Below, piece by piece: positions 6,762 through 39,033 of a stretch of DNA of 40,697 nucleotides. The notes beneath the pieces were generated by a model. The model searched no databases and was not told where the DNA came from. It saw nothing but the letters and a program-made list of their open reading frames with translations. The DNA is taken from IMG/VR virus record IMGVR_UViG_2541047891_000003. One strand, given 5' to 3'. Origin of the DNA: a virus (lineage: Duplodnaviria > Heunggongvirae > Uroviricota > Caudoviricetes). The stretch's first letter is position 1. Each line of letters starts with the position of its first letter. The translations under genes and the position numbers were made by a program.

Positions 6762-7151
6762 TTATTTTTGTCGTGTTATTGGGTCGACGTATTCTGAGTA
6801 AAATTCGGTCAGTTTTTGAAGTCGCATTTGAAAAGCTGCCAGCATATTTCTACGTTCTACGGGTGGCAGGTTTCTGTAAACATCAAGCAGGGCCTTCTCG
6901 TCATCATCAAGCGCTTCTCTATTTGTCTCTTCTTTCCCTGTCAGTAGCCAAGAAAGGGAAACGTTTGTGGCTTCTGCAATTTTGGCTGCGGAATCTTTAC
7001 TGATTGTTCCTCTTTTTTTCCATGCGTTGACTGATGAACGACCTACACCAGCGATACGCGCTAAATCTGAACCACTTAAATGATGCTGTTGAGAGATCGC
7101 ATCTAACCTTTCTGCTAGCGGGGTGTCGTATTGCTTTTTTCTCATGTCCAT
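6762..7151 (-). CDS. Prophage repressor, HTH (XRE/CI-like) DNA-binding protein, functional analogue of DicA/CI
   Basis: 129-aa ORF with an HTH-like segment LSGSDLARIAGVGRSSVNAWKKRG; divergent from a Cro-like gene across an operator-rich intergenic region. Confidence 0.75.
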   Translation of the reverse strand: MDMRKKQYDTPLAERLDAISQQHHLSGSDLARIAGVGRSSVNAWKKRGTISKDSAAKIAEATNVSLSWLLTGKEETNREALDDDEKALLDVYRNLPPVERRNMLAAFQMRLQKLTEFYSEYVDPITRQK

Positions 7152-7166
7152 TTAGCAATTATAACC

Positions 7167-7250
7167 GTTCAGTGAACACTAACAATTCCTCGAGGTGTTG
7201 ACTTATGTTCGTTTTAAGTGAACAATTGTTGTGGTTAGTTGAACTGGAGG
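7167..7250. promoter_or_regulatory. Immunity-region operator/promoter cluster (palindrome GTTCAGTGAAC, repeated GTGAAC/GTTGAAC half-sites, -35-like TTGACT)
   Basis: Palindrome at 7167-7177; related half-sites at 7216-7244; TTGACT at 7198-7203; lies between the divergent repressor and cro-like genes. Confidence 0.5.
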
Positions 7251-7254
7251 TTGT

Positions 7255-7530
7255 ATGACAGCATTGGACAAAGCAATAAAGATTGCTGGTGGTATTCGTC
7301 CGCTAGGGCGTGCAATAGGGGCTTGGCCATCTCAAATACACAAATGGGCAAATGAATACAATGGTCGAGTTCCGACGGGGGAACGGGTTCGTCAAATTTA
7401 TATTGCAACTGGGGTTACTCCTCATGAATTGCGACCAGATTTATACCCGAATCCAACTGACGGGTTGCCTGCTGGAGATAAGGCTAACACACCAAATACA
7501 CCGGAGTTGATTCATGAAAATCAAGCATGA
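7255..7530 (+). CDS. Cro/DicC/YdaS-like HTH regulator
   Basis: 91-aa ORF MTALDKAIKIAGGIRPLGRAIGAW...ELRPDLYPNP; divergent from the repressor; resembles YdaS-type Cro analogues. Confidence 0.65.
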   Translation: MTALDKAIKIAGGIRPLGRAIGAWPSQIHKWANEYNGRVPTGERVRQIYIATGVTPHELRPDLYPNPTDGLPAGDKANTPNTPELIHENQA

Positions 7531-7939
7531 ACACATCCGTATGGCGATGAATGCCTGGGCGCATCCGGACGGTGAAAAAGTTCCGGCAGCTGAAATAACC
7601 CGGGCTTATTTTGAGCTGGGTATGACGTTCCCGGAGCTATATGACGACAGCCATCCGGAAGCGCTGGCTCGTAATACCCAGAAAATTTTCCGTTGGCTGG
7701 ATAAAGACACCCCTGATGCGGTTAAAAAAATTCAGGCGTTGTTACCAGCGATCGAAAAAGCAATGCCACCTTTGCTGGTGGCCCGAATGCGCAGCCACAG
7801 TTCAGCCTATTTTCGGGAACTGGTGGAGACGCGGGAACGACTGGTGAGAGACGCTGATGATTTTGTCGCAGTGGCGATCGCTGGTTTCAACCAGATGAAT
7901 CGTGGTGGCCCGGCGGGAAATATTGTGGTTGTGCATTGA
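7514..7939 (+). CDS. YdaT-like protein (CII-like regulator family)
   Basis: 141-aa ORF starting MKIKHEHI as I recall YdaT does; overlaps the end of the cro-like gene. Confidence 0.6.
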   Translation: MKIKHEHIRMAMNAWAHPDGEKVPAAEITRAYFELGMTFPELYDDSHPEALARNTQKIFRWLDKDTPDAVKKIQALLPAIEKAMPPLLVARMRSHSSAYFRELVETRERLVRDADDFVAVAIAGFNQMNRGGPAGNIVVVH

Positions 7940-8010
7940 CTGACAATATTCATACCGGATCGCTTCCGGCAATTCGTGAGTAAAAAGATTCGCTATCAGA
8001 AGAGGTGAGT

Positions 8011-9081
8011 ATGGCTAACGCCTGGCTCAGATTATGGCATGACATGCCAAATGACCCTAAGTGGCGAACAATTGCCAGGGTGTCAGGGCAGCCAATTGCA
8101 ACAGTGATGGCAGTGTATATCCACCTCCTGGTGAGCGCGTCACGAAATGTCACGCGAGGTCACATTGATGTCACGACAGAAGATTTGGCAAGTGCGCTCG
8201 ACGTGACAGAAGAGGTAATTGATTCAATTTTGCAGACGATGCAGGGGCGGGTACTTGATGGTGATTTAATCACTGGATGGGAAAAACGCCAGGTGCTGAA
8301 AGAGGACAACGGCAATATTTCGCAAACCGCAAAATCTCCTGCAGAGCGCAAGAGGGCGCAGCGAGAGAGGGAAAGAAAGCGGGAACAAAATGGAGATTGT
8401 CACGGCGCGTCACGAAATGTCACGCACATGTCACGACGAGTCACGACAGATAAAGATACAGATAAAGATACAGATCAAGAAGATCAAAACACTATGGTCC
8501 ATGGCGTAAAAAACGCCACGAACCAGGCAGGGGATGTTCAGACCGTCAATCCTGGTCAGCCAGCAGGCACGACACCGGAAGCCGATTCAGCGTATGCGCT
8601 GAAAGCCGATTCGGGCGCTGTGCAGCAGGTGATGACCGCAAGGCCGGAGCAATCACACCAACTGCAGCAGCCTGAAGCCGATTCCGCCATTCAGCGGGAA
8701 GCCGATCGGGTAGTCCCGGAAAACACCGGGCAGCCTGTGGGACGAGTGGATTATCCGGATGTGTTCGAACAGGTCTGGCGGGAATACCCGTTGCGTGCCG
8801 GGGCAAACCCGAAGAAATCCGCTTTCAGTGCCTGGAAGGCCAGATTACGCGAGGGGGTGTCACCAGAGGCCATGCTGGATGGCGTGAGGCGTTACGCAAG
8901 ATACCTTGCGGCTACCGGGAAAACGGGAACGGAATTTGTTCAGCGAGCGACGACGTTTTTTGGACCGGACCGGAATTTTGAAAACCCCTGGCTGCTCCCG
9001 GTAAGCGGCACGAACAACCAGCGTTGTGTGAATCATATTTCTGAACCGGATACCGAAATTCCGCTGGGCTTCAGGGGGTAA
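8011..9081 (+). CDS. Replication initiator / replisome organiser (O-like, YdaU-type N-terminal domain)
   Basis: ATG at 8011 with RBS AGAGGTGA upstream; N-terminal replisome-organiser-like region; iteron repeats embedded in the coding sequence. Confidence 0.65.
   Translation: MANAWLRLWHDMPNDPKWRTIARVSGQPIATVMAVYIHLLVSASRNVTRGHIDVTTEDLASALDVTEEVIDSILQTMQGRVLDGDLITGWEKRQVLKEDNGNISQTAKSPAERKRAQRERERKREQNGDCHGASRNVTHMSRRVTTDKDTDKDTDQEDQNTMVHGVKNATNQAGDVQTVNPGQPAGTTPEADSAYALKADSGAVQQVMTARPEQSHQLQQPEADSAIQREADRVVPENTGQPVGRVDYPDVFEQVWREYPLRAGANPKKSAFSAWKARLREGVSPEAMLDGVRRYARYLAATGKTGTEFVQRATTFFGPDRNFENPWLLPVSGTNNQRCVNHISEPDTEIPLGFRG
8137..8480. repeat. Iteron array (GTCACG-containing direct repeats) plus GATAAAGATACA tandem repeat; candidate replication origin inside the initiator gene
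   Basis: 19-mer GCGTCACGAAATGTCACGC at 8137-8155 and 8407-8425; TCACGACAGA at 8171-8180 and 8441-8450; GATAAAGATACA x2 at 8450-8473. Confidence 0.6.
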
Positions 9082-9121
9082 GTGTTTATTTCAGCTCATG
9101 AGGTAATTTTCAGGAGGACTT

Positions 9122-9529
9122 GTGGCAAAAGTTTTTACACAAGAAGAGCGGGAAAAAATTAAAGGGCAGGTTGTTGAACTTGTACGCCAGAGTGGGCGCG
9201 AGACGTTACGACAACTGGAAGCTAAAACCGGGGCAACAAGATATCTGATGAGTGTTCTCGCCAGAGAGCTGGTTGCCAGTGGCGATGTATACAATTCTGG
9301 CTACGGGTTATTCCCGTCTGAACAGGCTCGTAAGGACTGGCAAAACGCCCGCAAAAAACTCTCAAGGGCAAAGCTGAAGAAAAAAACACCTGTGGTTGAT
9401 CCGGACCTTATCTGGTCGTTACCAGACGGAGAAATACGTCGTTATGACAGGCGTCAGAACATAATCTGTAGCGAGTGCCGGGAAAGCGAAGTTATGCAGC
9501 GTATACTAACGTTCTATTGGGGAATATAG
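9122..9529 (+). CDS. Hypothetical protein (possible winged-helix DNA-binding protein)
   Basis: 135-aa ORF with GTG start and GGAGG 4 nt upstream; no family recognised. Confidence 0.5.
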   Translation: MAKVFTQEEREKIKGQVVELVRQSGRETLRQLEAKTGATRYLMSVLARELVASGDVYNSGYGLFPSEQARKDWQNARKKLSRAKLKKKTPVVDPDLIWSLPDGEIRRYDRRQNIICSECRESEVMQRILTFYWGI

Positions 9530-9544
9530 CCACTAAATAAGGTA

Positions 9545-9856
9545 ATGAACCAAATGAACACGGAAAAAGCGAAAACGCAGCTCAGGATAATGCTTGCCGG
9601 TCCGGCTGCGAGTTATGCGACACATTCACCAGCCATAAAAAAGGTTCTTGATGAACTGGAGGCCAAAGACAAGCGCATTGCAGAACTGGAGGCAAGGGAA
9701 GTCCAGCTACCGGCTGGCTATGAACTTCGATATGGACACCCGATAAATGCTGATGAGCGCCATGTCATGATACCTAAGGAAAATGGCAGCTGGATTTATC
9801 TGGCTGATTTAGAGCGCGCACTACGTGTTGCTGGCATTCGCATCAAAGGAGAGTGA
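9545..9856 (+). CDS. Hypothetical protein
   Basis: 103-aa ORF; the start may instead be the ATG at 9554. Confidence 0.5.
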   Translation: MNQMNTEKAKTQLRIMLAGPAASYATHSPAIKKVLDELEAKDKRIAELEAREVQLPAGYELRYGHPINADERHVMIPKENGSWIYLADLERALRVAGIRIKGE

Positions 9857-9857
9857 C

Positions 9858-10214
9858 GTGGAAATAAAACCAGAAGATGAGTTAAGTAATATTGTTTTAT
9901 TTCCGGTAAAAGAAGATGACCCACGTAATCAGGTTAATTTTCTTTATGAGCCATCGGAAAGACCATATTGCCATCACGCTTCTGTCCGGGTTGATGAAAA
10001 AGAGCGTCAGGTCCGCTGTAAAATCTGCGGTGCAGTTGTGGAGCCGTTTGACTGGATGCTCTCTGTGGCGAAAAGAGAAACCAGACTGGCAGATGATGTA
10101 AGGCTATTGCGTCAGGAGGAACGGGAAAGGCGGAAAAATATAGAAAAGCTAATTCAGATTGAGCGTAACGCAAAAGCGCGGATACGCAGAGCGACAAAAT
10201 CCAGAACTGAATAA
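9858..10214 (+). CDS. Hypothetical zinc-ribbon protein
   Basis: GTG at 9858 preceded by AAGGAGAG; CHH...CKIC motif; basic C-terminus. Confidence 0.5.
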   Translation: MEIKPEDELSNIVLFPVKEDDPRNQVNFLYEPSERPYCHHASVRVDEKERQVRCKICGAVVEPFDWMLSVAKRETRLADDVRLLRQEERERRKNIEKLIQIERNAKARIRRATKSRTE

Positions 10215-10307
10215 TTAAATTTAGCACGGTTAAAAATTTAATCCTTTACCGGAGGGATTTCTGCACCCTCAGAACAGCAGGAGACCACCCGAAAGGGCGG
10301 TAGTGAA

Positions 10308-10490
10308 ATGCGAAAGTTCAAAGTAATTATTGAAACTGGAATAGCTGGTGGAGATTTTGAGGATGTATTCGAAGTGGACGATGACGCAACACCTGATGAA
10401 ATTCATGACGAAGCAAAAGAAATTTTCTTTAACTACTGCAATTACTCATATCACGAAATAAAAGACGAAGAGGAAGAACAAAATGGCTGA
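10308..10490 (+). CDS. Hypothetical acidic small protein
   Basis: 60-aa ORF, 8-nt overlap with the next small ORF. Confidence 0.45.
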   Translation: MRKFKVIIETGIAGGDFEDVFEVDDDATPDEIHDEAKEIFFNYCNYSYHEIKDEEEEQNG

Positions 10491-10659
10491 TTTTGGTTCA
10501 ACTAAATATAACGCCAGTTTTGAAGAATGGCATGAACTGTTAATGGACTATGCAGAGTTACGCGGTGGAAGTGCCGCCGATGCTGAAGCATGGCGTGATG
10601 ACTATGAAGCAGGAAAAACTCCGGTCGAAGCATATTGTGATGAGTGGGGCTATGAATGA
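10483..10659 (+). CDS. Hypothetical 58-aa protein (not in the ORF track)
   Basis: Hand-translated MADFGSTKYNASFEEWHELLMDYAELRGGSAADAEAWRDDYEAGKTPVEAYCDEWGYE; ATGA overlap with the downstream gene at 10656. Confidence 0.5.
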   Translation: MADFGSTKYNASFEEWHELLMDYAELRGGSAADAEAWRDDYEAGKTPVEAYCDEWGYE

Positions 10660-11171
10660 GCGAGATTAATTATCAGGAAGGGCATGAAACGGCAGGGCAG
10701 GCAAAACCAGTTGCATGGCGATATCGCTACGTGAAAAAAGGCGTTACGGACTTTCAGGAGAAGATGTGGGTTGGTGACTGGAAATATGTACCGACAAAAG
10801 AGGATTGCAACGACAGGCCGAGCTATGAGATTCAGGCATTATTCACTACCCCGCCAGTCCCGGTGATATCAGAAGGACTGGTTAAAGCCGTGCGCTTTTA
10901 TGAACAGGTAAAGCGTGAGAATCCACCAGTCGAAACAGGAGCATGGAAAGATGCTGTTGATTGGGTACTCAAAGAGGCCTGCTGTGCTGTCATTCTGGGT
11001 AAAGCCGACAATCCACTAGCATCCAGTAATCAGGTTGGCGAATTAACAATGTGGGTTAAACGACTGGTCAGTCAACTGAAAAAAGCTAATCCAGACTGCA
11101 AATTACCGGAGATGGCGATGGATTACCTGAAACGAAATGGACTGATAAGCGTGGAGGATGTTTTACGATGA
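10656..11171 (+). CDS. Hypothetical protein
   Basis: 171-aa ORF, translationally coupled to its neighbours. Confidence 0.6.
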   Translation: MSEINYQEGHETAGQAKPVAWRYRYVKKGVTDFQEKMWVGDWKYVPTKEDCNDRPSYEIQALFTTPPVPVISEGLVKAVRFYEQVKRENPPVETGAWKDAVDWVLKEACCAVILGKADNPLASSNQVGELTMWVKRLVSQLKKANPDCKLPEMAMDYLKRNGLISVEDVLR

Positions 11172-11251
11172 CCTGGCCTGAAGCATTCACAACGGTAGGA
11201 ATCGCACTGGCGGTGGCGCTGGTGGTGTATTCGATTTGCCGCTGGGGGTGA
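11168..11251 (+). CDS. Hypothetical 27-aa hydrophobic peptide (not in the ORF track)
   Basis: ATGA overlap with the upstream stop; MTWPEAFTTVGIALAVALVVYSICRWG is a single TM helix. Confidence 0.35.
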   Translation: MTWPEAFTTVGIALAVALVVYSICRWG

Positions 11252-11294
11252 TAAGTGGAATAGTGCGGGGTATCGTGCAGCCCCGCTGATTTGA

Positions 11295-11468
11295 TTATTT
11301 ATTTGGGGAGACAATGTCCTGAAGCGTGACGATTACTTCTTCATCTGTATCTGTATTTCGGAGTTGATATGTAATGTCGTCGTTTCTAATAATTTGCACT
11401 ACAAGCCATTCTCCATTTTTTTCACATAAGTGAACAGTACTGTTTTCCGATATACCATGAACGGTCAT
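11295..11468 (-). CDS. Hypothetical 57-aa protein (not in the ORF track)
   Basis: Hand-translated MTVHGISENSTVHLCEKNGEWLVVQIIRNDDITYQLRNTDTDEEVIVTLQDIVSPNK; AAGG about 9 nt upstream; AT-rich. Confidence 0.4.
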   Translation of the reverse strand: MTVHGISENSTVHLCEKNGEWLVVQIIRNDDITYQLRNTDTDEEVIVTLQDIVSPNK

Positions 11469-11679
11469 TTTTATACCTTTTGTGTTGTGTGAAGGAGCAG
11501 TATAGTCAGAAATGAGACAAGTGAAAGGGGATAGAAAGTAATAGTTTGTTTTTGTAGAATTGCTGCGGGTGCTTGAGGCTATCTGCCTCGGGCATGAACA
11601 CCAACGGCAGATAGAGAAAAGCCCCAGTTAACATTACGCGTCCGGCAAGACGCTTAACATTAATCTGAGGCATATCTGT

Positions 11680-11880
11680 ATGCGACACATAAAGATTAGC
11701 CTCTTAACAGTAAGAAATCAACTAACAGGGGGCTGTAATGCGAAGGAGCTATGTGTTTTGTCTGGTGGTGGTTTGCATCACCATTCTGATATTTGTCGGG
11801 ATGGTTCGCGGTTCGCTATGCGAGCTGCACATCAGGCAGGGAAACACAGAGCTTTCAGCGTATTTAGCCTACGAAGTTGA
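11680..11880 (+). CDS. mok: mok-like overlapping reading frame of a hok-family locus
   Basis: 66-codon ORF starting upstream of, and overlapping in another frame, the hok-like toxin ORF, as in hok/mok/sok loci. Confidence 0.4.
   Translation: MRHIKISLLTVRNQLTGGCNAKELCVLSGGGLHHHSDICRDGSRFAMRAAHQAGKHRAFSVFSLRS
11693..11721 (-). promoter_or_regulatory. sok: Candidate promoter for a Sok-like antisense RNA (minus strand: -35 TTGATT, 17-bp spacer, -10 TAATCT)
   Basis: Promoter-like hexamers on the minus strand positioned so the transcript would be complementary to the mok start region. Confidence 0.35.
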
Positions 11881-11890
11881 AAAACGTTAA
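11738..11890 (+). CDS. hok: Hok/Gef-family type I toxin (50 aa)
   Basis: Hand-translated MRRSYVFCLVVVCITILIFVGMVRGSLCELHIRQGNTELSAYLAYEVEKR; matches the Hok/Gef pattern (TM helix, SLCE motif, conserved C-terminal AYxAYE); GGGGG RBS upstream; not in the ORF track. Confidence 0.85.
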   Translation: MRRSYVFCLVVVCITILIFVGMVRGSLCELHIRQGNTELSAYLAYEVEKR

Positions 11891-11961
11891 GAGCTACGGC
11901 GGGGAGCAATTCCCGCCACTCTTTAAGTTGTCAGGTATCCTCAATGCACCCGCACTTAACC

Positions 11962-12012
11962 CGCTTTAGCGCTGATTTATGGGGATCCCTCAGCGCTTCG
12001 GCGGGTTTTTTG
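11962..12012 (+). terminator. Strong Rho-independent terminator (nested hairpin CCGC..GCGCTGA...TCAGCGC..GCGG then TTTTTT)
   Basis: Long imperfect hairpin followed by T-run 12007-12012; about 70 nt after the hok stop, consistent with a hok mRNA 3' end. Confidence 0.7.
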
Positions 12013-12093
12013 TTGTTTATTTTCGGTGAGCATGATGCATCTGGTTGTACTGATGTGGCTGGCTGATTCTGTTATTCAGGTGGCTTATTGCTG

Positions 12094-12121
12094 TTGATTG
12101 GTATGTCTTCACGGCTAGAAT
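12094..12121 (+). promoter_or_regulatory. Sigma70-like promoter candidate (TTGATT, 16-bp spacer, TAGAAT)
   Basis: Good hexamers with 16-bp spacing; followed by the perfect 12-bp palindrome CCCCTTAAGGGG at 12160-12171. Confidence 0.45.
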
Positions 12122-12201
12122 CGAGGATCTTAAGTAGCGCGCAGGGAGAAGAGGGATGGACCCCTTAAGGGGAGGTGTTTAAAGTTCACGGGATTTTGGT
12201 T

Positions 12202-12369
12202 ATGAACGATAAGGAATTAATTGCTGCGCTCTCTGTACCTGGTAATTATGAAGTAATAGTTCTTGAGAATGGTGAATTTATCGTAATGCCATTGCCACCC
12301 GATGTTATTCTGATCACCAAAGAATCGCATGCGGATTCGGTCAGTCACTTCAGCATTAAGAAAGACTAG
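12202..12369 (+). CDS. Hypothetical small protein
   Basis: ORF MNDKELIAALSVPGNYEVIVLENGEFIVMPLPPDVILITKESHADSVSHFSIKKD; start uncertain (GTG at 12175 sits immediately after the RBS). Confidence 0.4.
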   Translation: MNDKELIAALSVPGNYEVIVLENGEFIVMPLPPDVILITKESHADSVSHFSIKKD

Positions 12370-12435
12370 ATTATAATGCCGTAGTTAAAGCCAGCCTGAA
12401 CAACTGGCGTCTGTCGCACCATTACGAGGATAGTA

Positions 12436-12714
12436 GTGGTGCATTACAAGAAAATTAACAATTCTGATAATACAGCCGTCTTTGCCAGCAGGCACGGGCG
12501 GCGTTCTCATGCATTTAAATCTGACTGGTTCCAGCATGACCCATGCACTGAAGAACAGGCCGAATGGCTGATTCAGAACTATCGCAGACGTGGGTGTGAG
12601 TTTAGGAAAGCCCTCAGCCTCGATTATCGTCACTGGATAATCTACGTCAGGCTCCCTTATTCCGAACGCCCACCACGCCCGTCCCGCACATTCCAGCAAC
12701 GGATCTGGAGGTAA
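12436..12714 (+). CDS. Hypothetical protein
   Basis: 92-aa ORF with GTG start and GAGG 6 nt upstream; directly precedes the ydfU-like gene. Confidence 0.5.
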   Translation: MVHYKKINNSDNTAVFASRHGRRSHAFKSDWFQHDPCTEEQAEWLIQNYRRRGCEFRKALSLDYRHWIIYVRLPYSERPPRPSRTFQQRIWR

Positions 12715-12715
12715 C

Positions 12716-13765
12716 GTGCGGGTATTACTTCGACCTGTTCCGATACCGGAACTCGGGCTGGTGGTCCTTAAACCAGGCCGTGAATCCATGCAGGTATTTC
12801 ATAACTCTCGAGTGCTGGTGGAGCCGGAACCGAAAAGCATGCGCGGCCTGCCATCCGGGGTCGTCCCTGCCGTTCGCCAGCCGCTGGCTGAGGATAAATC
12901 ATTACTGCCATTTTTCAGCGATGAGCGGGTGATTCGTGCTGCTGGCGGCGCTGGCGCATTGTTTGACTGGTTACTGCGCCATGTTAAATCCTGCCAGTGG
13001 CCACACGGCGATTATCATCACAGCGAAACCGTCATTCACCGTTATGGTACCGGCGCGATGGTGTTGTGCTGGCACTGCGACAACCAGTTGCGTGACCAGA
13101 CATCCGAATCACTCGGGCAACTTGCTCATCAAAACCTGTCAGCATGGATGATTGACGTCATACGCCATGCAATGAATGGCACACAGGAGCGGGAATTATC
13201 GCTGGCTGAATTATCCTGGTGGGCAGTCTGCAATCAGGTGGCGGACGCGCTACCGGAGACAGTATTACGTCGTTCTCTGAGGTTACGTGCGGAAAAAATC
13301 CGCTCGGTGTACCGCGAAAGCGACATCATGCCGGGAGAGCAGACAGCCACCAGCATACTGAAGCAGCGCACAAAAAATATTGTGCTATCGCCTCACGCCC
13401 ACCAGCAACAGAACTCACCGCAGGAAAAGGCGGTGGTCAGCATTGCTGTTGATCCTGAGTCTCCGGAATCTTTCATGAAGCGACCTAAACGTCGCCGTTG
13501 GGTAAATGAGAAATATACGCGCTGGGTAAAGACACAGCCGTGTGCGTGTTGTGGTAAGCCAGCCGACGATCCCCATCACCTGATTGGTCACGGTCAGGGA
13601 GGGATGGGAACAAAGGCCCACGATATTTTCACGCTACCGTTGTGCCGGGAACATCACAATGAACTTCATGCGGATCCGCTGGCGTTCGAAGAAAAGCATG
13701 GTTCCCAGGTTGATTTAATTTTTCGTTTTCTTGATCACGCCTTTGCAACCGGCGTGCTCGGGTAA
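12716..13765 (+). CDS. ydfU: YdfU-like protein (DUF968, Cys/His-rich C-terminus)
   Basis: 349-aa ORF; C-terminus CACCGKPADDPHHLIGHGQGGMGTKAHD...CREHHNELH; same length as Qin YdfU. Confidence 0.7.
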   Translation: MRVLLRPVPIPELGLVVLKPGRESMQVFHNSRVLVEPEPKSMRGLPSGVVPAVRQPLAEDKSLLPFFSDERVIRAAGGAGALFDWLLRHVKSCQWPHGDYHHSETVIHRYGTGAMVLCWHCDNQLRDQTSESLGQLAHQNLSAWMIDVIRHAMNGTQERELSLAELSWWAVCNQVADALPETVLRRSLRLRAEKIRSVYRESDIMPGEQTATSILKQRTKNIVLSPHAHQQQNSPQEKAVVSIAVDPESPESFMKRPKRRRWVNEKYTRWVKTQPCACCGKPADDPHHLIGHGQGGMGTKAHDIFTLPLCREHHNELHADPLAFEEKHGSQVDLIFRFLDHAFATGVLG

Positions 13766-13777
13766 AAGAGGTTACTG

Positions 13778-14152
13778 ATGCGTATAGAGTTTGTTTTGCC
13801 TTATCCGCCGACGGTGAATACTTACTGGCGACGTCGTGGCAACACATATTTTGTATCAAAAGCCGGTGAGCGTTATCGTCGTGATGTGGCGCTCATTGTT
13901 CGCCAGCAGCGACTGAAATTAAACCTGTCCGGAAGGCTGGCGATAAAGATTATTGCAGAGCCACCGGATAAGCGCCGTCGTGACCTGGACAATATTCTGA
14001 AAGCACCACTGGATGCGCTGACGCATGCGGGACTGCTTATCGATGACGAGCAGTTTGATGAAATCAATATTGTGCGAGGTCAGGTCGTTCCTGGTGGTCG
14101 GCTGGGCGTGAAGATTTACGAAATAATGCATGACGGGCAGGTCCAAAAATGA
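13778..14152 (+). CDS. rusA: RusA-family Holliday junction resolvase
   Basis: 124-aa ORF with the RRRDLDNxxKAxxDALT motif typical of RusA. Confidence 0.85.
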   Translation: MRIEFVLPYPPTVNTYWRRRGNTYFVSKAGERYRRDVALIVRQQRLKLNLSGRLAIKIIAEPPDKRRRDLDNILKAPLDALTHAGLLIDDEQFDEINIVRGQVVPGGRLGVKIYEIMHDGQVQK

Positions 14153-14970
14153 AACTGGAAGATTTACCGAAATACTATTCCCCGAAATCGCCAGGCCTGA
14201 CTGATGCATCCGCCTCGACATCAAAAGATGCACTGAGTATCACTGATGTGATGGCTGCACAGGGCATGACACAGAACCGGGCTGAGATGGGATTTTCTGC
14301 GTTCCTGGGGAAAATGGGCATTAGTATGAACGACAGGGCGCGGGCAACAGAATTACTGGCAGATTATGCATTAAGTCAGTGCGATCGCGTGGCGGCGTTA
14401 AGAAAACTTCCGGCAGAAATAAAACCGGCAGTGATGCGCATTATGGCTTCGTATGCTTTTGAGGATTATGCCCGCAGTGCAGCGAGTAAAAAGCAGTGCC
14501 CTTGTTGCGGTGGGAAAAAATTTATTGAAAGCGTAGTTTTTACAAACAAGGTCCGGTATCCGGATGGTAAACCGCCGGTATGGGCAAAGTGTACAAAGGG
14601 TGTGTATCCGTCTTACTGGGAAGAATGGAAAAAAATCCGGGAGGTGGTGAAAGTTTCTTGTCCTGAATGTAAAGGGAAGGGGGAGATTTCCACTGCCTGT
14701 AAAGACTGCCGTGGGCGTGGTGTTGCCATTCATCGTGAAGAGTCGGAAAAACGGGGTATGCCTGTAATCAGGAACTGCCAGCGTTGTGGCGGTCGGGGCT
14801 ATGAAAGACTACCATCAACGGAGGCATTTAATGCCATACGCAAAGTGACGAGTGCTATCACGCTTGATACGTGGAAAAAATCAGTGAAACGCTTTTACGA
14901 TACGTTGGTGGTTCGGTTTGACATTGAAGAGGCATGGGCGGAGCGGCAGTTAAAGAGGGTAACGCGATAG
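14149..14970 (+). CDS. quuQ: Late-gene antiterminator Q (phage 82/Qin QuuQ-like, zinc-finger type)
   Basis: 273-aa ORF with multiple CxxC pairs; typical position upstream of the lysis genes. Confidence 0.75.
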   Translation: MKLEDLPKYYSPKSPGLTDASASTSKDALSITDVMAAQGMTQNRAEMGFSAFLGKMGISMNDRARATELLADYALSQCDRVAALRKLPAEIKPAVMRIMASYAFEDYARSAASKKQCPCCGGKKFIESVVFTNKVRYPDGKPPVWAKCTKGVYPSYWEEWKKIREVVKVSCPECKGKGEISTACKDCRGRGVAIHREESEKRGMPVIRNCQRCGGRGYERLPSTEAFNAIRKVTSAITLDTWKKSVKRFYDTLVVRFDIEEAWAERQLKRVTR

Positions 14971-36622: not shown

Positions 36623-36633
36623 GTGGAGTGGAT

Positions 36634-39033
36634 ATGGCAGCAGTAAAAATCTCTGGTGTGCTGAAAGATGGTGCGGGAAAACCAATACAAAACTGCACTA
36701 TTCAGCTCAAAGCAAAGCGTAACAGTACCACGGTACTGGTGAACACGGTGGCCTCTGAAAATCCGGATGAAGCCGGACGTTACAGCATGGATGTCGAGTA
36801 TGGCCAGTACAGCGTCGCCCTGCTGGTTGAAGGTTTTCCGCCTTCACATGCCGGGACCATTACCGTCTATGAAGGTTCCAGACCAGGTACGCTGAATGAT
36901 TTTCTCGGTGCCATGACGGAAGATGATGTCATGCCGGAGGCATTGCGTCGTTTTGAGGCAATGGTGGAAGAAGTGGCACGCAACGCCGAAGCCGCCTCTC
37001 AGAGCGCAGCGGCGGCAAAGAAATCCGAAACTGCAGCGGCATCATCGAAGAACGCGGCGAAAACCTCAGAAACGAATGCAGCTAATAGTGCACAGGCGGC
37101 AGCGGCCTCGCAGACTGCATCGGCAAACTCCGCGACAGCAGCCAAAAAATCAGAAACCAACGCGAAAAACAGCGAGACAGCCGCAAAGACGAGCGAAACC
37201 AACGCAAAGTCCAGCCAGACGGCAGCGAAAACCAGCGAAACGAATGCCAAAGTCAGTGAAACTGCAGCGAAAAATAGCCAGGCTGCAGCAGCCGAAAGCG
37301 AGAGCGCGGCAGCCGGTTCTGCGACTTCAGCAGCCGGATCAGCAACTGCTGCGGCTAACAGTCAGAAAGCAGCGAAGACGAGCGAAACCAACGCAAAGTC
37401 CAGCCAGACGGCAGCGAAGACCAGCGAAACGAATGCTAAAGCCAGCGAAACTGCGGCGAAAAACAGCCAGGCTGCAGCAGCCGAAAGCGAGAGTGCCGCA
37501 GCTGGTTCTGCAAGTGCGGCGGCTGCTTCTGCCACTGCATCAGCCAACAGTCAAAAAGCTGCAAAAACCAGTGAAACCAACGCAAAGGCGAGCGAGACTG
37601 CTGCGGCTAACTCGGCGAAAGCATCCGCTGCAAGCCAGACGGCTGCAAAAGCAAGTGAAGACGCAGCCAGAGAGTATGCAAGCCAGGCTGCGGAGCCGTA
37701 TAAACAAGTTTTGCAGCCGCTTCCCGATGTGTGGATACCGTTTAACGATTCACTGGATATGATTACGGGCTTTTCGCCGTCATATAAAAAGATTGTTATT
37801 GGTGATGATGAAATAACGATGCCTGGCGATAAGGTTGTAAAGTTTAAACGCGCATCAACTGCCACATATATCAATAAATCAGGCGTATTTAGTGTTGCTA
37901 AAATTGATGAGCCACGATTTGAAAAAGAAGGTTTATTGATTGAAGGACAGCGCACTAACTATTTTGTTAAATCCAATACCCCCGCTGAATGGACGAGTAC
38001 CAGCAATATCGATAAAACTAATAATGGTGTTGATGAATTTGGTTTTTCATATGCCAAAATGCGAGCAAAAGATAATATGACAGGACAATCATCTGCACTT
38101 AGTCTGCATACATGCAGTGCATCCCGGGGGATTGATGTTAGTGGCGATAATAAGTATTGCACTGTTTCATGCAGGGTTAAAGCTCCTGATGGTCTTCGTT
38201 GTCGTTTGCGTTTTGAAAAATACGATGGATCGGTTTATACATTTTTAGGAGATGCTTATTTAACTTTCGGAACTCTGATAATAGAAAAAACTGGCGGAGC
38301 AGCCAATAGAATAGCAGCTACTGCAACTAAAGATCCGGTTACAGGGTGGATTTTCTATGAGGCAACTATAGAAGCTGTTGAAGGTGAAACCTTAATTGGC
38401 GCAATGATTCAGTATGCGCCGAAAAAAGGTGGTGTAACTGAAGCGGGAGATTATATTTACCTTGCAACACCACAATTTGAAAACGGCGGATGTGCTTCAT
38501 CTTTTGTTATTACGACAACTGCACCCGCAACCCGCTCTAGTGATATGGTGACGATCCCAACTGAAAATAATATCTATAATAGACCGCTTACGTGTCTGGT
38601 CGAGGTTAATAGAAATTGGGGCGATATTCCTCCTAATGTAGCACCGCGTATTTTTGATTTTTCTGGTGTGCCACCTATTGAGTCAATTACATACGCTTTT
38701 AACACAACTGAGAAATATTACGGTCAGCTTTATATGCAAACTTATAAAGCGTCGACAAGTACTTACGTTTCTAGTGTGTTTGCTGGTCGAACTGATGTTC
38801 GAAAATTCATTGGTGGTTTTAATATTTATTCTGATGGTACTAAACGAGTAGTTTCTAACGGTGAGGCTACTAAAACTATGAAAACGGAGTGGACGGGCGT
38901 AAAAACACGGACCTTTATTCGAATTGGAGGTCAAGCCACATCAGGAACTCGTCATCTATTCGGCCATTTGAGAAATCTTCGTCTCTGGCATAAAGAATTA
39001 ACTGATGCGCAAATGGGGGAGAGTATTAAATGA
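36634..39033 (+). CDS. stf: Side tail fibre protein (Stf-like N-terminus, repeat-rich Ala/Ser/Thr shaft, divergent C-terminal receptor-binding region)
   Basis: N-terminus MAAVKISGVLKDGAGKPIQNCTIQLKAKRNSTT matches lambda Stf by recall; tandem KTSETNAK-type repeats; AT-rich C-terminal ~450 aa unlike lambda Stf. Confidence 0.8.
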   Translation: MAAVKISGVLKDGAGKPIQNCTIQLKAKRNSTTVLVNTVASENPDEAGRYSMDVEYGQYSVALLVEGFPPSHAGTITVYEGSRPGTLNDFLGAMTEDDVMPEALRRFEAMVEEVARNAEAASQSAAAAKKSETAAASSKNAAKTSETNAANSAQAAAASQTASANSATAAKKSETNAKNSETAAKTSETNAKSSQTAAKTSETNAKVSETAAKNSQAAAAESESAAAGSATSAAGSATAAANSQKAAKTSETNAKSSQTAAKTSETNAKASETAAKNSQAAAAESESAAAGSASAAAASATASANSQKAAKTSETNAKASETAAANSAKASAASQTAAKASEDAAREYASQAAEPYKQVLQPLPDVWIPFNDSLDMITGFSPSYKKIVIGDDEITMPGDKVVKFKRASTATYINKSGVFSVAKIDEPRFEKEGLLIEGQRTNYFVKSNTPAEWTSTSNIDKTNNGVDEFGFSYAKMRAKDNMTGQSSALSLHTCSASRGIDVSGDNKYCTVSCRVKAPDGLRCRLRFEKYDGSVYTFLGDAYLTFGTLIIEKTGGAANRIAATATKDPVTGWIFYEATIEAVEGETLIGAMIQYAPKKGGVTEAGDYIYLATPQFENGGCASSFVITTTAPATRSSDMVTIPTENNIYNRPLTCLVEVNRNWGDIPPNVAPRIFDFSGVPPIESITYAFNTTEKYYGQLYMQTYKASTSTYVSSVFAGRTDVRKFIGGFNIYSDGTKRVVSNGEATKTMKTEWTGVKTRTFIRIGGQATSGTRHLFGHLRNLRLWHKELTDAQMGESIK
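37186..37563 (+). repeat. Tandem direct repeat, 2 x 189 bp (63-aa units), inside stf, flanked by degenerate copies
   Basis: Near-identical units starting at about 37186 and 37375; encoded peptide KTSETNAKSSQTAAKTSETNAK.SETAAKNSQAAAAESESAAAGSA... Confidence 0.75.

Follow-up and report, generated by a model that had tools for sequence, protein, structure and literature searches.

A probable iteron origin of replication within the initiator gene of a lambdoid prophage

In phage lambda, the origin of replication lies inside the O gene, where four 18-bp inverted repeats are each bound by a dimer of the O protein (PMC6022878). In pSK41, the Rep boxes sit in the centre of rep, in a stretch that codes for a dispensable linker of the protein (PMC5703833), and in the RepA_N family semi-palindromic iterons converge on a poly-A tract (PMC7145576). 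In phage SPP1, oriL is found within gene 38, where direct repeats are joined to an AT-rich unwinding element, and a second set of binding repeats is found at oriR (PMC6316719).

Here we describe a locus of comparable layout in the IMG/VR virus record IMGVR_UViG_2541047891_000003 (Caudoviricetes), of which the whole analysed stretch, 40,697 nucleotides long, is called the window. Two clusters of short GTCACG repeats and an adjoining A/T-rich tract lie within a gene for a replication initiator, and, judged by their sequence and by analogy with characterised systems, they are probably the replication origin of a lambdoid (Rac-like) prophage, placed inside the gene of its own initiator and bound by that initiator. 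The preliminary description of this DNA had already read an origin into the initiator gene, and this reading gains support from the phasing and conservation of the repeats, from frozen synonymous sites, from the switching of repeat cores between lineages, and from the winged helix predicted for the N-terminal domain. The design of the origin is a classical one, found here in a very common family: 2078 of 5426 complete E. coli genomes contain the module of N-terminal domain and repeats (with 100% identity in APEC O1 and 85% in O157:H7 EDL933), and it has relatives across the Proteobacteria. Existing annotation calls the gene only “hypothetical protein” or “phage replisome organizer”, and this origin is not described in the literature that we searched, mostly papers available without subscription, on GTCACG iterons, prophage replisome-organizer origins, DnaT-like phage initiators, and the phage D3 origin.

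The initiator gene and its two repeat clusters

The features of the locus, with the evidence for each assignment where it is not the repeat itself, are as follows.

8011..9081, + strand: replication initiator gene (“phage replisome organizer”), 356 aa (ORF list, PHROG match, NCBI name)
8011..8295, + strand: part of the gene encoding aa 1-95, the N-terminal winged-helix domain, presumed to bind the iterons (structure model)
8135..8180, + strand: iteron cluster 1 (cores 8139-8175), with GTCACG at 8139, 8149 and 8170 and GTCACA at 8159
8202-8207, - strand: inverted iteron core, GTCACG, 32 bp past the last direct core of cluster 1
8392..8745, + strand: part of the gene encoding aa 128-245, the disordered linker between the domains (pLDDT <50)
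8397..8445, + strand: iteron cluster 2, with GTCACG at 8399, 8409, 8419, 8430 and 8440
8446..8495, + strand: A/T-rich (72%), purine-rich (70%) tract of 50 bp, presumed DNA-unwinding element (composition, family conservation)
8575-8610 and 8671-8706, + strand: 36-nt direct repeat in the linker coding region (repeat search)
8746..9078, + strand: coding region of the C-terminal helical domain (aa 246-330) and tail (phrog_1701, tail alignments)

The initiator starts at ATG 8011, the mechanical ORF beginning at GTG 8005, and stands in the gene order CI, Cro, CII-like protein, initiator and LygF module; on its 3′ side are DUF977/LygF and then proteins of unknown function. No helicase or loader gene lies between the initiator and Q in the window prophage. 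The family phrog_3729, “replication initiation protein”, matches the initiator over its full length (E=9e-257), and two PHROG “replisome organizer” families match aa 4-164 (phrog_4880 at 5.5e-6 and phrog_5968 at 2.2e-4). A Pfam scan at E <= 0.1 returned no match to Phage_rep_O, Phage_rep_org_N or RepA_N (PF06970); the sole Pfam match, to HTH_Crp_2, was sub-threshold and was set aside. The only NCBIfam match was to the DnaT tail, far below the family cut-off, and a PDB sequence search returned only 13 residues of the same DnaT tail at an E value of about 0.4. A scan of positions 7000-10000 against Rfam found no RNA family.

Successive cores are spaced by 10, 10 and 11 bp in cluster 1 and by 10, 10, 11 and 10 bp in cluster 2, which is one turn of the helix. 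Nine direct cores at 10/11-bp spacing and one inverted core are arranged in two clusters 260 bp apart. The cores are direct, 6-7 bp long, and have no internal dyad. The preliminary description had given each unit four copies of GTCACG: the positions of the repeats are real, but cluster 1 holds three exact copies and a GTCACA variant, while cluster 2 holds five, and the inverted core at 8202-8207 had been overlooked. An identical 19-mer that it reported 270 bp apart is indeed found at 8137 and 8407, and is part of the longest exact stretch common to both clusters, 21 nt (GCGCGTCACGAAATGTCACGC, at 8135 and 8405). Since 270 bp amounts to 90 codons, both copies of the 19-mer are in the same reading frame. 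Of the 25 GTCACG copies in the 40.7 kb of the window, where a shuffled sequence would be expected to hold 17.6, nine sit within about 320 bp (Poisson P = 5e-14), and the count of GTCAC per 350-bp stretch reaches 10 at the initiator repeats and at most 5 anywhere else in the window.

As protein, cluster 1 codes for aa 43-57, a loop that separates two helices in the winged-helix domain and has pLDDT <50 at aa 47-52. Cluster 2 codes for aa 130-145, where the disordered linker begins, or for aa 130-160 together with the tract. The tandem repeats said to follow the second unit are present as 2.9 copies of ACAGATAAAGAT at 8446-8480 (TRF score 63). The tract as a whole is translated as TDKDTDKDTDQEDQNT, includes two GATC sites (8473-8476 and 8482-8485), and holds the AT maximum of the initiator ORF. 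The peptides SRNVT and DKDTDKDTD had both been placed in a repetitive linker; they occur as stated, with ASRNVT encoded twice (aa 43-48 and aa 133-138) and DKDTDKDTD encoded in aa 147-155, but the copy encoded by cluster 1 belongs to the loop of the DNA-binding domain and not to the linker. DnaA boxes are common, but not universal, near the iterons of theta origins; here, no DnaA box TTATCCACA with at most one mismatch was found from 5.6 to 12.9 kb, and the count for the whole window equals that expected by chance. An IHF site in 8446-8495 was considered by comparing the consensus by eye, and was rejected as a poor fit.

In the structure model, the N-terminal domain is a winged helix resembling the DnaD N-terminal domain and the RepA_N initiators. 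Natural in-frame length variants of the protein fall in the linker region, one of them (P0020) being without most of cluster 2 and the tract. The C-terminal region matches phrog_1701, “DnaD-like helicase loader” (E=6e-62), and is exchanged independently of the N-domain. Its tail, ISEPDTEIPLGFRG (aa 343-356, nt 9037-9078), matches the C-terminus of host DnaT, the 13-residue comparison being with VSEPDSQIPPGFRG, and it aligns with the DnaT chains 6aep and 2ru8 and with positions 156-179 of the NCBIfam DnaT family; sister initiators bear a whole DnaT-like domain. Together, the C-terminal domain and tail are presumed to be a module for recruiting the host replisome. The initiator of the Shigella phage 75/02 Stx has an alternative N-domain.

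Conservation of the repeats and tract among homologous genes

The comparison covered 72 usable homologous ORFs, most of them from a one-genome-per-species collection. Failure of the repeats to recur in homologous initiator genes had been named beforehand as evidence against an origin, and the opposite was found: a phased chain stands at the cluster-2 position in 66 of the 72 (with at least three copies), at the cluster-1 position in 54 and at both positions in 52, and cluster 1 is not detectable in 18 of the 72. Homologues that carry phased repeats at the same two gene positions along with an A/T- and purine-rich tract range from 35 to 92% identity, and their host groups include Enterobacterales, Aeromonas, Pseudomonas, Bordetella, Burkholderiales, sphingomonads, and others. 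In Aeromonas phage pAEv1818 and Pseudomonas phage phi1, whose N-domains are roughly 70-76% identical to that of the window, GTCAC falls at the same gene offsets as in the window (129/139/149/160 and about 389-418) and is followed by an A-rich tract. Inverted copies of the core are found at the equivalent place in three loci (L001, L002 and L004).

The core itself is specific to the lineage, with GTCACG, CGAACGC, GTAACGC, TGCAACGC, GTGACGC and GGAACGC all represented, and both clusters of a gene use the same core in nearly all of the 52 two-cluster genes, the exceptions being L148 and a few loci where the detector chose a non-iteron word. Co-inheritance of core class and N-domain is expected from linkage alone, since the iterons lie inside or adjoin the N-domain coding sequence. 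A single core class is found in hosts from E. coli to Bordetella and Acidovorax, and Pseudomonas and Enterobacterales each have more than one class, which argues against a host factor as the binding protein. N-domain, iterons and tract are swapped together as a single block and are joined to different C-domains, at a junction directly after the tract. Among close relatives, the copy number of the iterons changes in 21-bp steps, and an addition of 21 bp in cluster 1 brings two extra iterons and keeps the frame.

Judged by their synonymous positions, the cores are conserved as DNA, beyond the needs of protein coding. Across 23 GTCACG-class genes from diverse hosts, iteron codons have a third-position entropy of 0.35 bit, and 25 other four-fold codons that are conserved have one of 1.64 bit (Mann-Whitney P=2.6e-4). 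Within cluster 1, V47 is GTC, T48 is ACG, G50 is GGT and V54 is GTC in 23 of 23 genes each, while the spacer codon R49 is free to vary; at the inverted core, the codon for V65 is GTG in all 20 homologues that keep valine there.

The A/T content of the tract is likewise under selection at the level of codons across the family. The AT-richest 40-nt window of the ORF starts between -20 and +40 nt from the end of cluster 2 in 57 of 73 loci, and AT makes up 64% of the tract but 41% of the rest of the ORF. Among GC-rich ORFs, the ratio of GAT to GAC is 57/5 in the tract and 225/357 elsewhere (P=9e-17), and that of AAA to AAG is 40/18 in the tract and 121/263 elsewhere (P=1e-7); for these counts the sole criterion for placing the tract was where the iteron chain ends, and the same result is given by the AT-richest-window definition, which is circular. 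Codons ending in A or T are retained in the tract even in hosts with 60-70% GC. Of 78 loci, 47 have the motif AGA[TG]A[ACG][AG]GA within gene nt 301-600, where the background rate is 0.006 per 300 nt; in this count a few first matches precede cluster 2, such as the window's own at nt 354. The hexamer periodicity of the tract, (GATAAA/GATACA)n, is shared by different iteron classes and by hosts that range over 35-70% GC. The frame of the tract is constant in 45 of 47 loci, where it is translated as (D-K/T)n, and therefore the role of an acidic linker in the protein, or hexamer slippage, may also shape its composition.

A proposed mechanism and its alternatives

Cluster 2 is presumed to be the core of the origin. 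It adjoins the AT maximum of a gene whose tract is under selection for A/T, which is the signature of an origin, and the generic traits of iteron origins are present, namely three or more helically phased direct repeats and an adjacent A/T-rich tract. We infer from the structure model and from analogous initiators that the N-terminal domain is the iteron binder, and we likewise infer that the site fires as an origin, with unwinding in the tract and the route of helicase recruitment described here. In the proposed mechanism, the winged helix, similar to that of the DnaD N-terminal domain and RepA_N, would bind the 6-7-bp GTCACG cores. Since the period of the cores is 10-11 bp, the bound monomers would align on one face of the helix, forming a nucleoprotein array on the five sites of cluster 2, and this array would destabilise the neighbouring 50-bp tract at 8446-8495, the putative unwinding element. 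Cluster 1, with four direct cores and one inverted core about 260 bp upstream, would provide accessory sites that could enlarge or loop the complex, or that could serve control. The C-terminal domain with its DnaT-like tail would then recruit the helicase-loading machinery of the host. Because both clusters and the tract lie in segments of the protein that tolerate sequence change, a surface loop and a disordered linker, constraints on the DNA and on the protein can coexist.

Two further readings may be added, which taken jointly we regard as possible but rather doubtful. The first starts from the lack of a helicase or loader gene in the prophage, the DnaT-like tail of its initiator, and the whole DnaT-like domain of the sister initiators. 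The origin may therefore bring in DnaB by mimicking what DnaT does in the restart primosome, and not through a loader of the P or DnaC type. The second is that (GATAAA/GATACA)n may be a single-strand recognition element like the DnaA-trios, and not a generic melting region.

Among the alternatives to an origin, the one that survives best holds that the arrays are sites where the initiator exerts control, by autorepression, a pR-type operon roadblock, titration or handcuffing, and that the true origin is elsewhere. Plasmid iteron arrays often do have control roles, the sites lie inside the transcribed initiator gene, and cluster 1 has no adjacent A/T-rich tract and is absent in 18 of 72 homologues. 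We nevertheless consider control alone quite unlikely, given that cluster 2 adjoins the AT maximum of the gene in most homologues, beside a tract under selection for A/T, that the 40.7-kb window holds no other iteron cluster, and that the characterised analogues of the same layout are origins.

It is very unlikely that a protein other than the initiator (for example a host factor, a terminase at a pac-like site, a partition protein, or a recombinase) recognises the repeats, their location in the initiator gene being incidental. Phased short repeats are known also in pac/cos and centromere-like sites. However, phages of very different hosts have a core in common, and within one host group the cores differ; the flanking genes and C-domains vary among GTCACG-bearing genes, where the N-domain alone is constant; the repeats keep a fixed place in the gene throughout the family; and the terminase and structural genes are about 10 kb from the repeats within the window. 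Least credible of all, and largely refuted by the frozen synonymous sites, is the idea that the repeats have no function as DNA and arose from a repetitive peptide, or from slippage-prone DNA in tolerant parts of the protein. In its favour, the repeats are translated, giving ASRNVT twice and DKDTDKDTD, within a loop and a disordered linker, their copy number is polymorphic, and the tract keeps a single frame in nearly all loci. Against it, the cores fall in each of the three codon phases, so that the repeating unit is not the peptide, and a period of 10/11 bp is no multiple of 3. In 23 diverged genes the synonymous positions of the core are invariant, whereas spacer sites and other four-fold sites vary freely. 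The peptide also changes wholesale with the core class, and A/T-ending codons persist at 60-70% host GC.

With the repeats and tract taken as the origin, its location gives a simple annotation rule for origins in thousands of prophages, and the specificity classes predict groups of incompatibility and cross-activation among co-resident prophages. The family also offers a matched series of initiators and iterons (GTCACG, CGAACGC, GTAACGC, TGCAACGC and GTGACGC) for studying how winged-helix initiators change specificity, and a clear example of one sequence under both DNA-level and protein-level constraint.

Comparison with known systems

The preliminary description had called the arrangement lambda-like, which holds for the functional design but not for the homology of the initiator, the form of the cores, or the place of cluster 1, which lies outside the linker. 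As with lambda O and its origin, the presumed origin lies within the initiator gene, in part of it that codes for the segment joining an N-terminal domain for origin binding to a C-terminal domain for recruitment; the iteron array stands directly beside an A/T-rich unwinding region on its promoter-distal side, in DNA whose peptide product tolerates change; and the initiator gene follows cro and cII in the rightward early operon. Another lambdoid O-type initiator is encoded by gene 18 of P22. The window initiator is unrelated in sequence to lambda O, with no Pfam match, its cores are 6-7-bp direct repeats in two clusters where those of lambda are 18-bp inverted repeats, and the prophage has no P-type partner gene downstream.

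The satellite phage P4 shares the bipartite layout, with one short direct repeat in two separate clusters: its ori and crr each carry a set of octamer iterons to which the alpha protein binds. However, alpha is a primase-helicase, and ori and crr are kilobases apart and are not known to have such an arrangement within the sequence coding for the DNA-binding domain of the initiator.

The SPP1 gp38 protein shares with the window initiator the functional name “replisome organizer”, and in both cases direct repeats and an A/T-rich tract lie in the organizer gene, although the window initiator has no match to Phage_rep_org_N at E <= 0.1. SPP1 has its own loader (gp39) and helicase (gp40) and the window prophage has neither; among its relatives, pAEv1818, phi1, Hennie and 75/02 Stx do carry dedicated genes for a loader and a helicase. 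In SPP1, about 13 kb separates the two repeat sets, whereas in the window they lie 260 bp apart within one gene.

The RepA_N initiators (pSK41 and pTZ2162 Rep, and RepA of the V. cholerae PLE) have an N-terminal winged helix like the DnaD N-terminal domain, to which the modelled N-domain of the window initiator is similar, but this initiator has no match to PF06970, and its cores are direct with no internal dyad. The pSK41 type belongs to plasmids of Firmicutes and the window to a phage of Proteobacteria, and in the window a second cluster is present inside the N-domain coding sequence; the position of cluster 2 and the predicted disorder of the linker, on the other hand, fit the central linker repeats of pSK41 Rep. 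The mechanism proposed here is the one expected from the design shared by lambda, SPP1 and pSK41, so known biology would be extended by this origin and not overturned.

Initiator gene and its repeats

The suspected origin lies within the coding sequence of a gene whose product matches PHROGs family phrog_3729 ('replication initiation protein') over its full length (E = 9e-257). Further PHROGs matches are to 'replisome organizer' and 'DnaD-like' families in the N-terminal part and to 'primosomal protein' and 'DnaD-like helicase loader' families in the C-terminal part; the NCBI name of the protein is 'phage replisome organizer'. Pfam and NCBIfam scans of the initiator recognised nothing except a DnaT-like C-terminal tail: its last residues (aa 343-356, window 9037-9078) read ISEPDTEIPLGFRG, nearly identical to the host DnaT C-terminus SEPDSQIPPGFRG, and this tail is kept among C-domain homologues. 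Upstream lie a CI-like repressor, Cro/YdaS-like and CII/YdaT-like genes and, farther away, a RecE-like exonuclease and an integrase; 3' of the initiator are DUF977/LygF, several genes of unknown function, an HNH/NinG-like gene, RusA and Q. The element is a Rac-like lambdoid prophage with the initiator at the lambda O position. No helicase or helicase-loader gene was found anywhere in its early operon (7255-14967); in the relatives pAEv1818, phi1, Hennie and 75/02 Stx such a gene directly follows the initiator.

Features of the initiator region in the window
6762-7151, minus strand: CI-like repressor, upstream of the initiator
8005-9081, plus strand: initiator ORF, likely ATG start 8011, 356-aa product
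8139, 8149 and 8170 (starts), plus strand: GTCACG cores of cluster 1, on the coding strand of the initiator ORF
8159 (start), plus strand: variant core GTCACA of cluster 1
8202-8207, minus strand: inverted GTCACG core, the single opposite-strand copy
8399, 8409, 8419, 8430 and 8440 (starts), plus strand: GTCACG cores of cluster 2
8446-8480, plus strand: tandem repeat ACAGATAAAGAT, 2.9 copies, immediately 3' of the last cluster-2 core

Neighbouring cores are spaced 10 or 11 bp apart. The preliminary description, which counted four GTCACG motifs in each of two units, had correctly located the repeats, but cluster 1 holds three exact cores and one variant, cluster 2 holds five, and the inverted copy was missing from its list. 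The 19-mer that it reported as common to both units, 270 bp apart, is contained in the longest exact match between the clusters (21 nt, 8135-8155 and 8405-8425), and the tandem repeats that it placed after the second unit are the ACAGATAAAGAT copies, which sit in a 50-bp stretch of 72% A+T and 70% purine. Two GATC (Dam) sites, 8473-8476 and 8482-8485, lie 9 bp apart within this presumed unwinding tract. Nine of the 25 GTCACG in the window are packed into about 320 bp (Poisson P = 5e-14, expectation from shuffles), and GTCAC occurs 10 times in the repeat region and at most five times in any other 350-bp stretch of the window. The sole other window site with a comparably repeated hexamer is 37057-37456, with 10 GCGAAA in 400 bp, within an 801-aa late-region ORF (36628-39033) that probably encodes a tail fibre.

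Conservation and constraint across homologues

Searches of phage genomes with tblastn found N-domain homologues of about 70-76% identity (length-dependent) in Aeromonas phage pAEv1818, phi1 and other Pseudomonas phages, and more distant relatives in an uncultured podovirus (about 47%), Ralstonia phage Hennie (38%) and cyanophages (about 35%). In the Aeromonas and Pseudomonas genes the distances of GTCAC from the start codon equal those in the window (129/139/149/160 and about 389-418), and an A-rich tract again comes next. The podovirus homologue instead has CGAACGC at 122/134/144 and 312/333/343/353/363, and Hennie has (T)GCAACG at 136/146/157/167 and 407/417/427/437, each followed by a purine-rich tract. 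Scanning one genome per species added 80 loci from Proteobacteria and beyond. Among the 72 usable ORFs (the window, three phage loci and loci from the genome collection), a phased chain, defined as at least three exact copies at a spacing of 9-12 or 19-23 bp, was found at the cluster-2 position in 66, at the cluster-1 position in 54 and at both in 52, so that the conservation which the preliminary description had asked for is present. Where both clusters occur they share an identical core; the exceptions are L148 and a handful of loci for which the detector chose a non-iteron word. The core classes are GTCACG, CGAACGC, GTAACGC, TGCAACGC, GTGACGC and GGAACGC, with ACG(C) common to all. In most of these initiator genes the top 6-mer reaches 5-12 per 560 nt, compared with 3-6 elsewhere in the fetched loci.

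The locus with the most clearly unlike cores, L148 (a Pseudomonadota MAG), combines CGAACG in cluster 1 (gene nt 122-144) with GTGACGC in cluster 2 (nt 338-377). It could have arisen by recombination or represent an intermediate in specificity. In Erwinia phyllosphaerae (L109), CGTCAC recurs at 5-bp and 10-bp spacing (e.g. 159, 164, 169) in gene nt 141-180 and 411-450, a sign that iterons of that lineage may overlap or be spaced at half-turns.

All three codon phases are used for the cores, GTCACG being read as V-T, as part of S-R or as part of G-H, and a 10/11-bp period cannot come from a peptide repeat. Synonymous sites were compared across 23 genes of the GTCACG class whose hosts differ widely in GC content. 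Third positions of conserved four-fold codons within cores are nearly fixed: V47 GTC, T48 ACG, G50 GGT and V54 GTC in 23/23 each, T55 ACG and S44 TCA in 22/23, and V65, whose codon forms the inverted core, GTG in 20/20. Outside the cores, 25 further conserved four-fold codons have near-random third positions (1.3-1.95 bits), and so does the spacer codon R49. Third-position entropy averages 0.35 bit in cores and 1.64 bit elsewhere (Mann-Whitney P = 2.6e-4). A switch of core class replaces the loop peptide wholesale (SRNVTRGHIDVT, NASANATERG, TATQGNADATRGN). By these codon patterns, the constraint acts on the DNA and not on the peptide.

The A/T-rich tract shows comparable signs. The AT-richest 40-nt window of the ORF starts -20 to +40 nt from the cluster-2 end in 57 of 73 loci. 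Redefined solely as the 42 nt past the last iteron, the tract averages 64% A+T and 74% purine, with 41% A+T in the rest of the gene, and among 31 GC-rich ORFs GAT/GAC counts are 57/5 in the tract and 225/357 in the rest of the ORF (P = 9e-17), those of AAA/AAG 40/18 and 121/263 (P = 1e-7). The motif AGA[TG]A[ACG][AG]GA occurs within gene nt 301-600 in 47 of 78 loci (background 0.006 per 300 nt) and opens the tract right past the last iteron in nearly all of them; in a few, including the window (nt 354), its first match lies upstream of cluster 2 in the purine-rich basic-helix region. The AT maximum, codon bias and motif therefore indicate that A/T richness is under selection, while the motif's identical reading frame in 45/47 leaves room for a further contribution from hexamer slippage or from a preference, at the protein level, for an acidic (D-K/T)n linker.

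Protein architecture and exchange of modules

AlphaFold models confidently predict an N-terminal domain (aa 1-95) with helices at 2-14, 16-25, 29-45, 56-63 and 67-77 and then a beta-hairpin, a predicted winged helix, followed by a basic helix (aa 110-126), a disordered stretch (aa 128-245) and a helical C-domain (about aa 250-302).

Fold-comparison scores of the N-domain
DnaD N-terminal domain (8ojj): 7.9
DnaD N-terminal domain (2vn2): 7.4
Staphylococcal RepA_N plasmid initiator (4pta): 6.6
B. subtilis DnaB (5wtn): 6.5
V. cholerae PLE RepA N-terminal domain (4ro3): 6.2
Generic winged-helix regulators: about 6

The preliminary description had the repeats translated into a linker. Cluster 2 (aa 130-145) and the tract (aa 146-161) do encode the beginning of the disordered linker, but cluster 1 encodes aa 43-57, a loop between the third and fourth N-domain helices (pLDDT <50 at aa 47-52). 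The DNA elements are therefore located where the protein tolerates almost any sequence. Farther along the linker, a 36-nt direct repeat encoding PEADSA (8575-8610 and 8671-8706, 75% identical) recurs 96 bp apart, and a 324-aa E. coli variant (P0006) lacks precisely the 32 intervening aa, the loss that recombination between the two copies would be expected to cause.

The domains are exchanged as units. Some E. coli and Salmonella proteins join a window-type N-domain and linker start to a DnaT-like C-domain (PF17948), others (e.g. from Shigella phage 75/02 Stx) join a window-type C-domain to an unrelated N-domain, and the junction falls just 3' of the tract. The GTCACG-bearing window, pAEv1818 and phi1 have only the N-domain in common, their C-domains and neighbour genes being different. 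Core number varies too: close relatives carry 21 additional bp in cluster 1 (7 codons, two iterons), E. albertii has six cores there, and some close relatives have additional cluster-2 cores. A 302-aa E. coli protein (P0020) has a natural in-frame deletion relative to window aa 135-188 that removes most of cluster 2 and the entire tract; it could belong to an origin-defective cryptic prophage. The 75/02 Stx initiator (L165) has repeats and a tract of its own (2080-2105, 2331-2342, 2359-2388), with two GGGGCTTC 11 bp apart and an inverted GAAGCCCC, then a purine-rich CAAGAACAGGAA tract, which suggests the same design built from different parts.

Proposed mechanism and known systems

By analogy with the characterised lambda, SPP1 and pSK41 systems of like layout, the winged-helix N-domain would bind one core at each helical turn along a single DNA face, the five-site cluster-2 array would promote opening of the adjoining tract, and the C-domain would recruit host helicase-loading proteins. 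Cluster 1 would provide accessory sites, because it was not detected in 18/72 homologues while cluster 2 is nearly universal, and may serve looping, a higher-order complex or control. Confidence drops stepwise: the repeats are almost certainly functional DNA, the N-domain is very probably what binds the cores, and the site is probably the origin. Helicase loading by DnaT mimicry and a sequence-specific role of the tract are less ordinary, tentative possibilities. That the repeats serve control only is improbable. Binding by some other protein is less probable still, given how core classes are distributed over hosts and how gene neighbourhoods change, and a pure peptide or slippage origin, largely refuted by the frozen synonymous core sites, is the least credible.

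The N-domain and repeat module is very common in complete E. coli genomes (2078 of 5426), and no description of this initiator-gene origin was found in the searchable literature, whose coverage is incomplete. [quoted passage not shown] The pSK41 Rep N-terminal domain binds four Rep boxes lying centrally in rep, ori encodes a central domain that serves as a dispensable linker, and the DnaD-like C-domain contacts primase; pPR9 and pSK41 exchange the N-domain plus ori (PMC5703833), a swap that the module exchange and polymorphism seen here resemble. In fold class the initiator's N-domain groups with RepA_N initiators and the DnaD N-terminal domain, and profile searches tie the protein weakly to 'replisome organizer' families; by sequence it matched neither Pfam RepA_N nor Phage_rep_org_N, and it is not a lambda O homologue. 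The lambda-like arrangement of the preliminary description thus holds in function but not in descent: judged by layout, the putative origin is of the lambda, SPP1 and pSK41 kind. It is distinctive in its short direct cores at one-turn spacing, its two clusters, one within the coding sequence of the DNA-binding domain, its conserved hexamer-periodic tract, a prophage that has neither loader nor helicase gene, and an initiator whose last residues copy the DnaT C-terminus.
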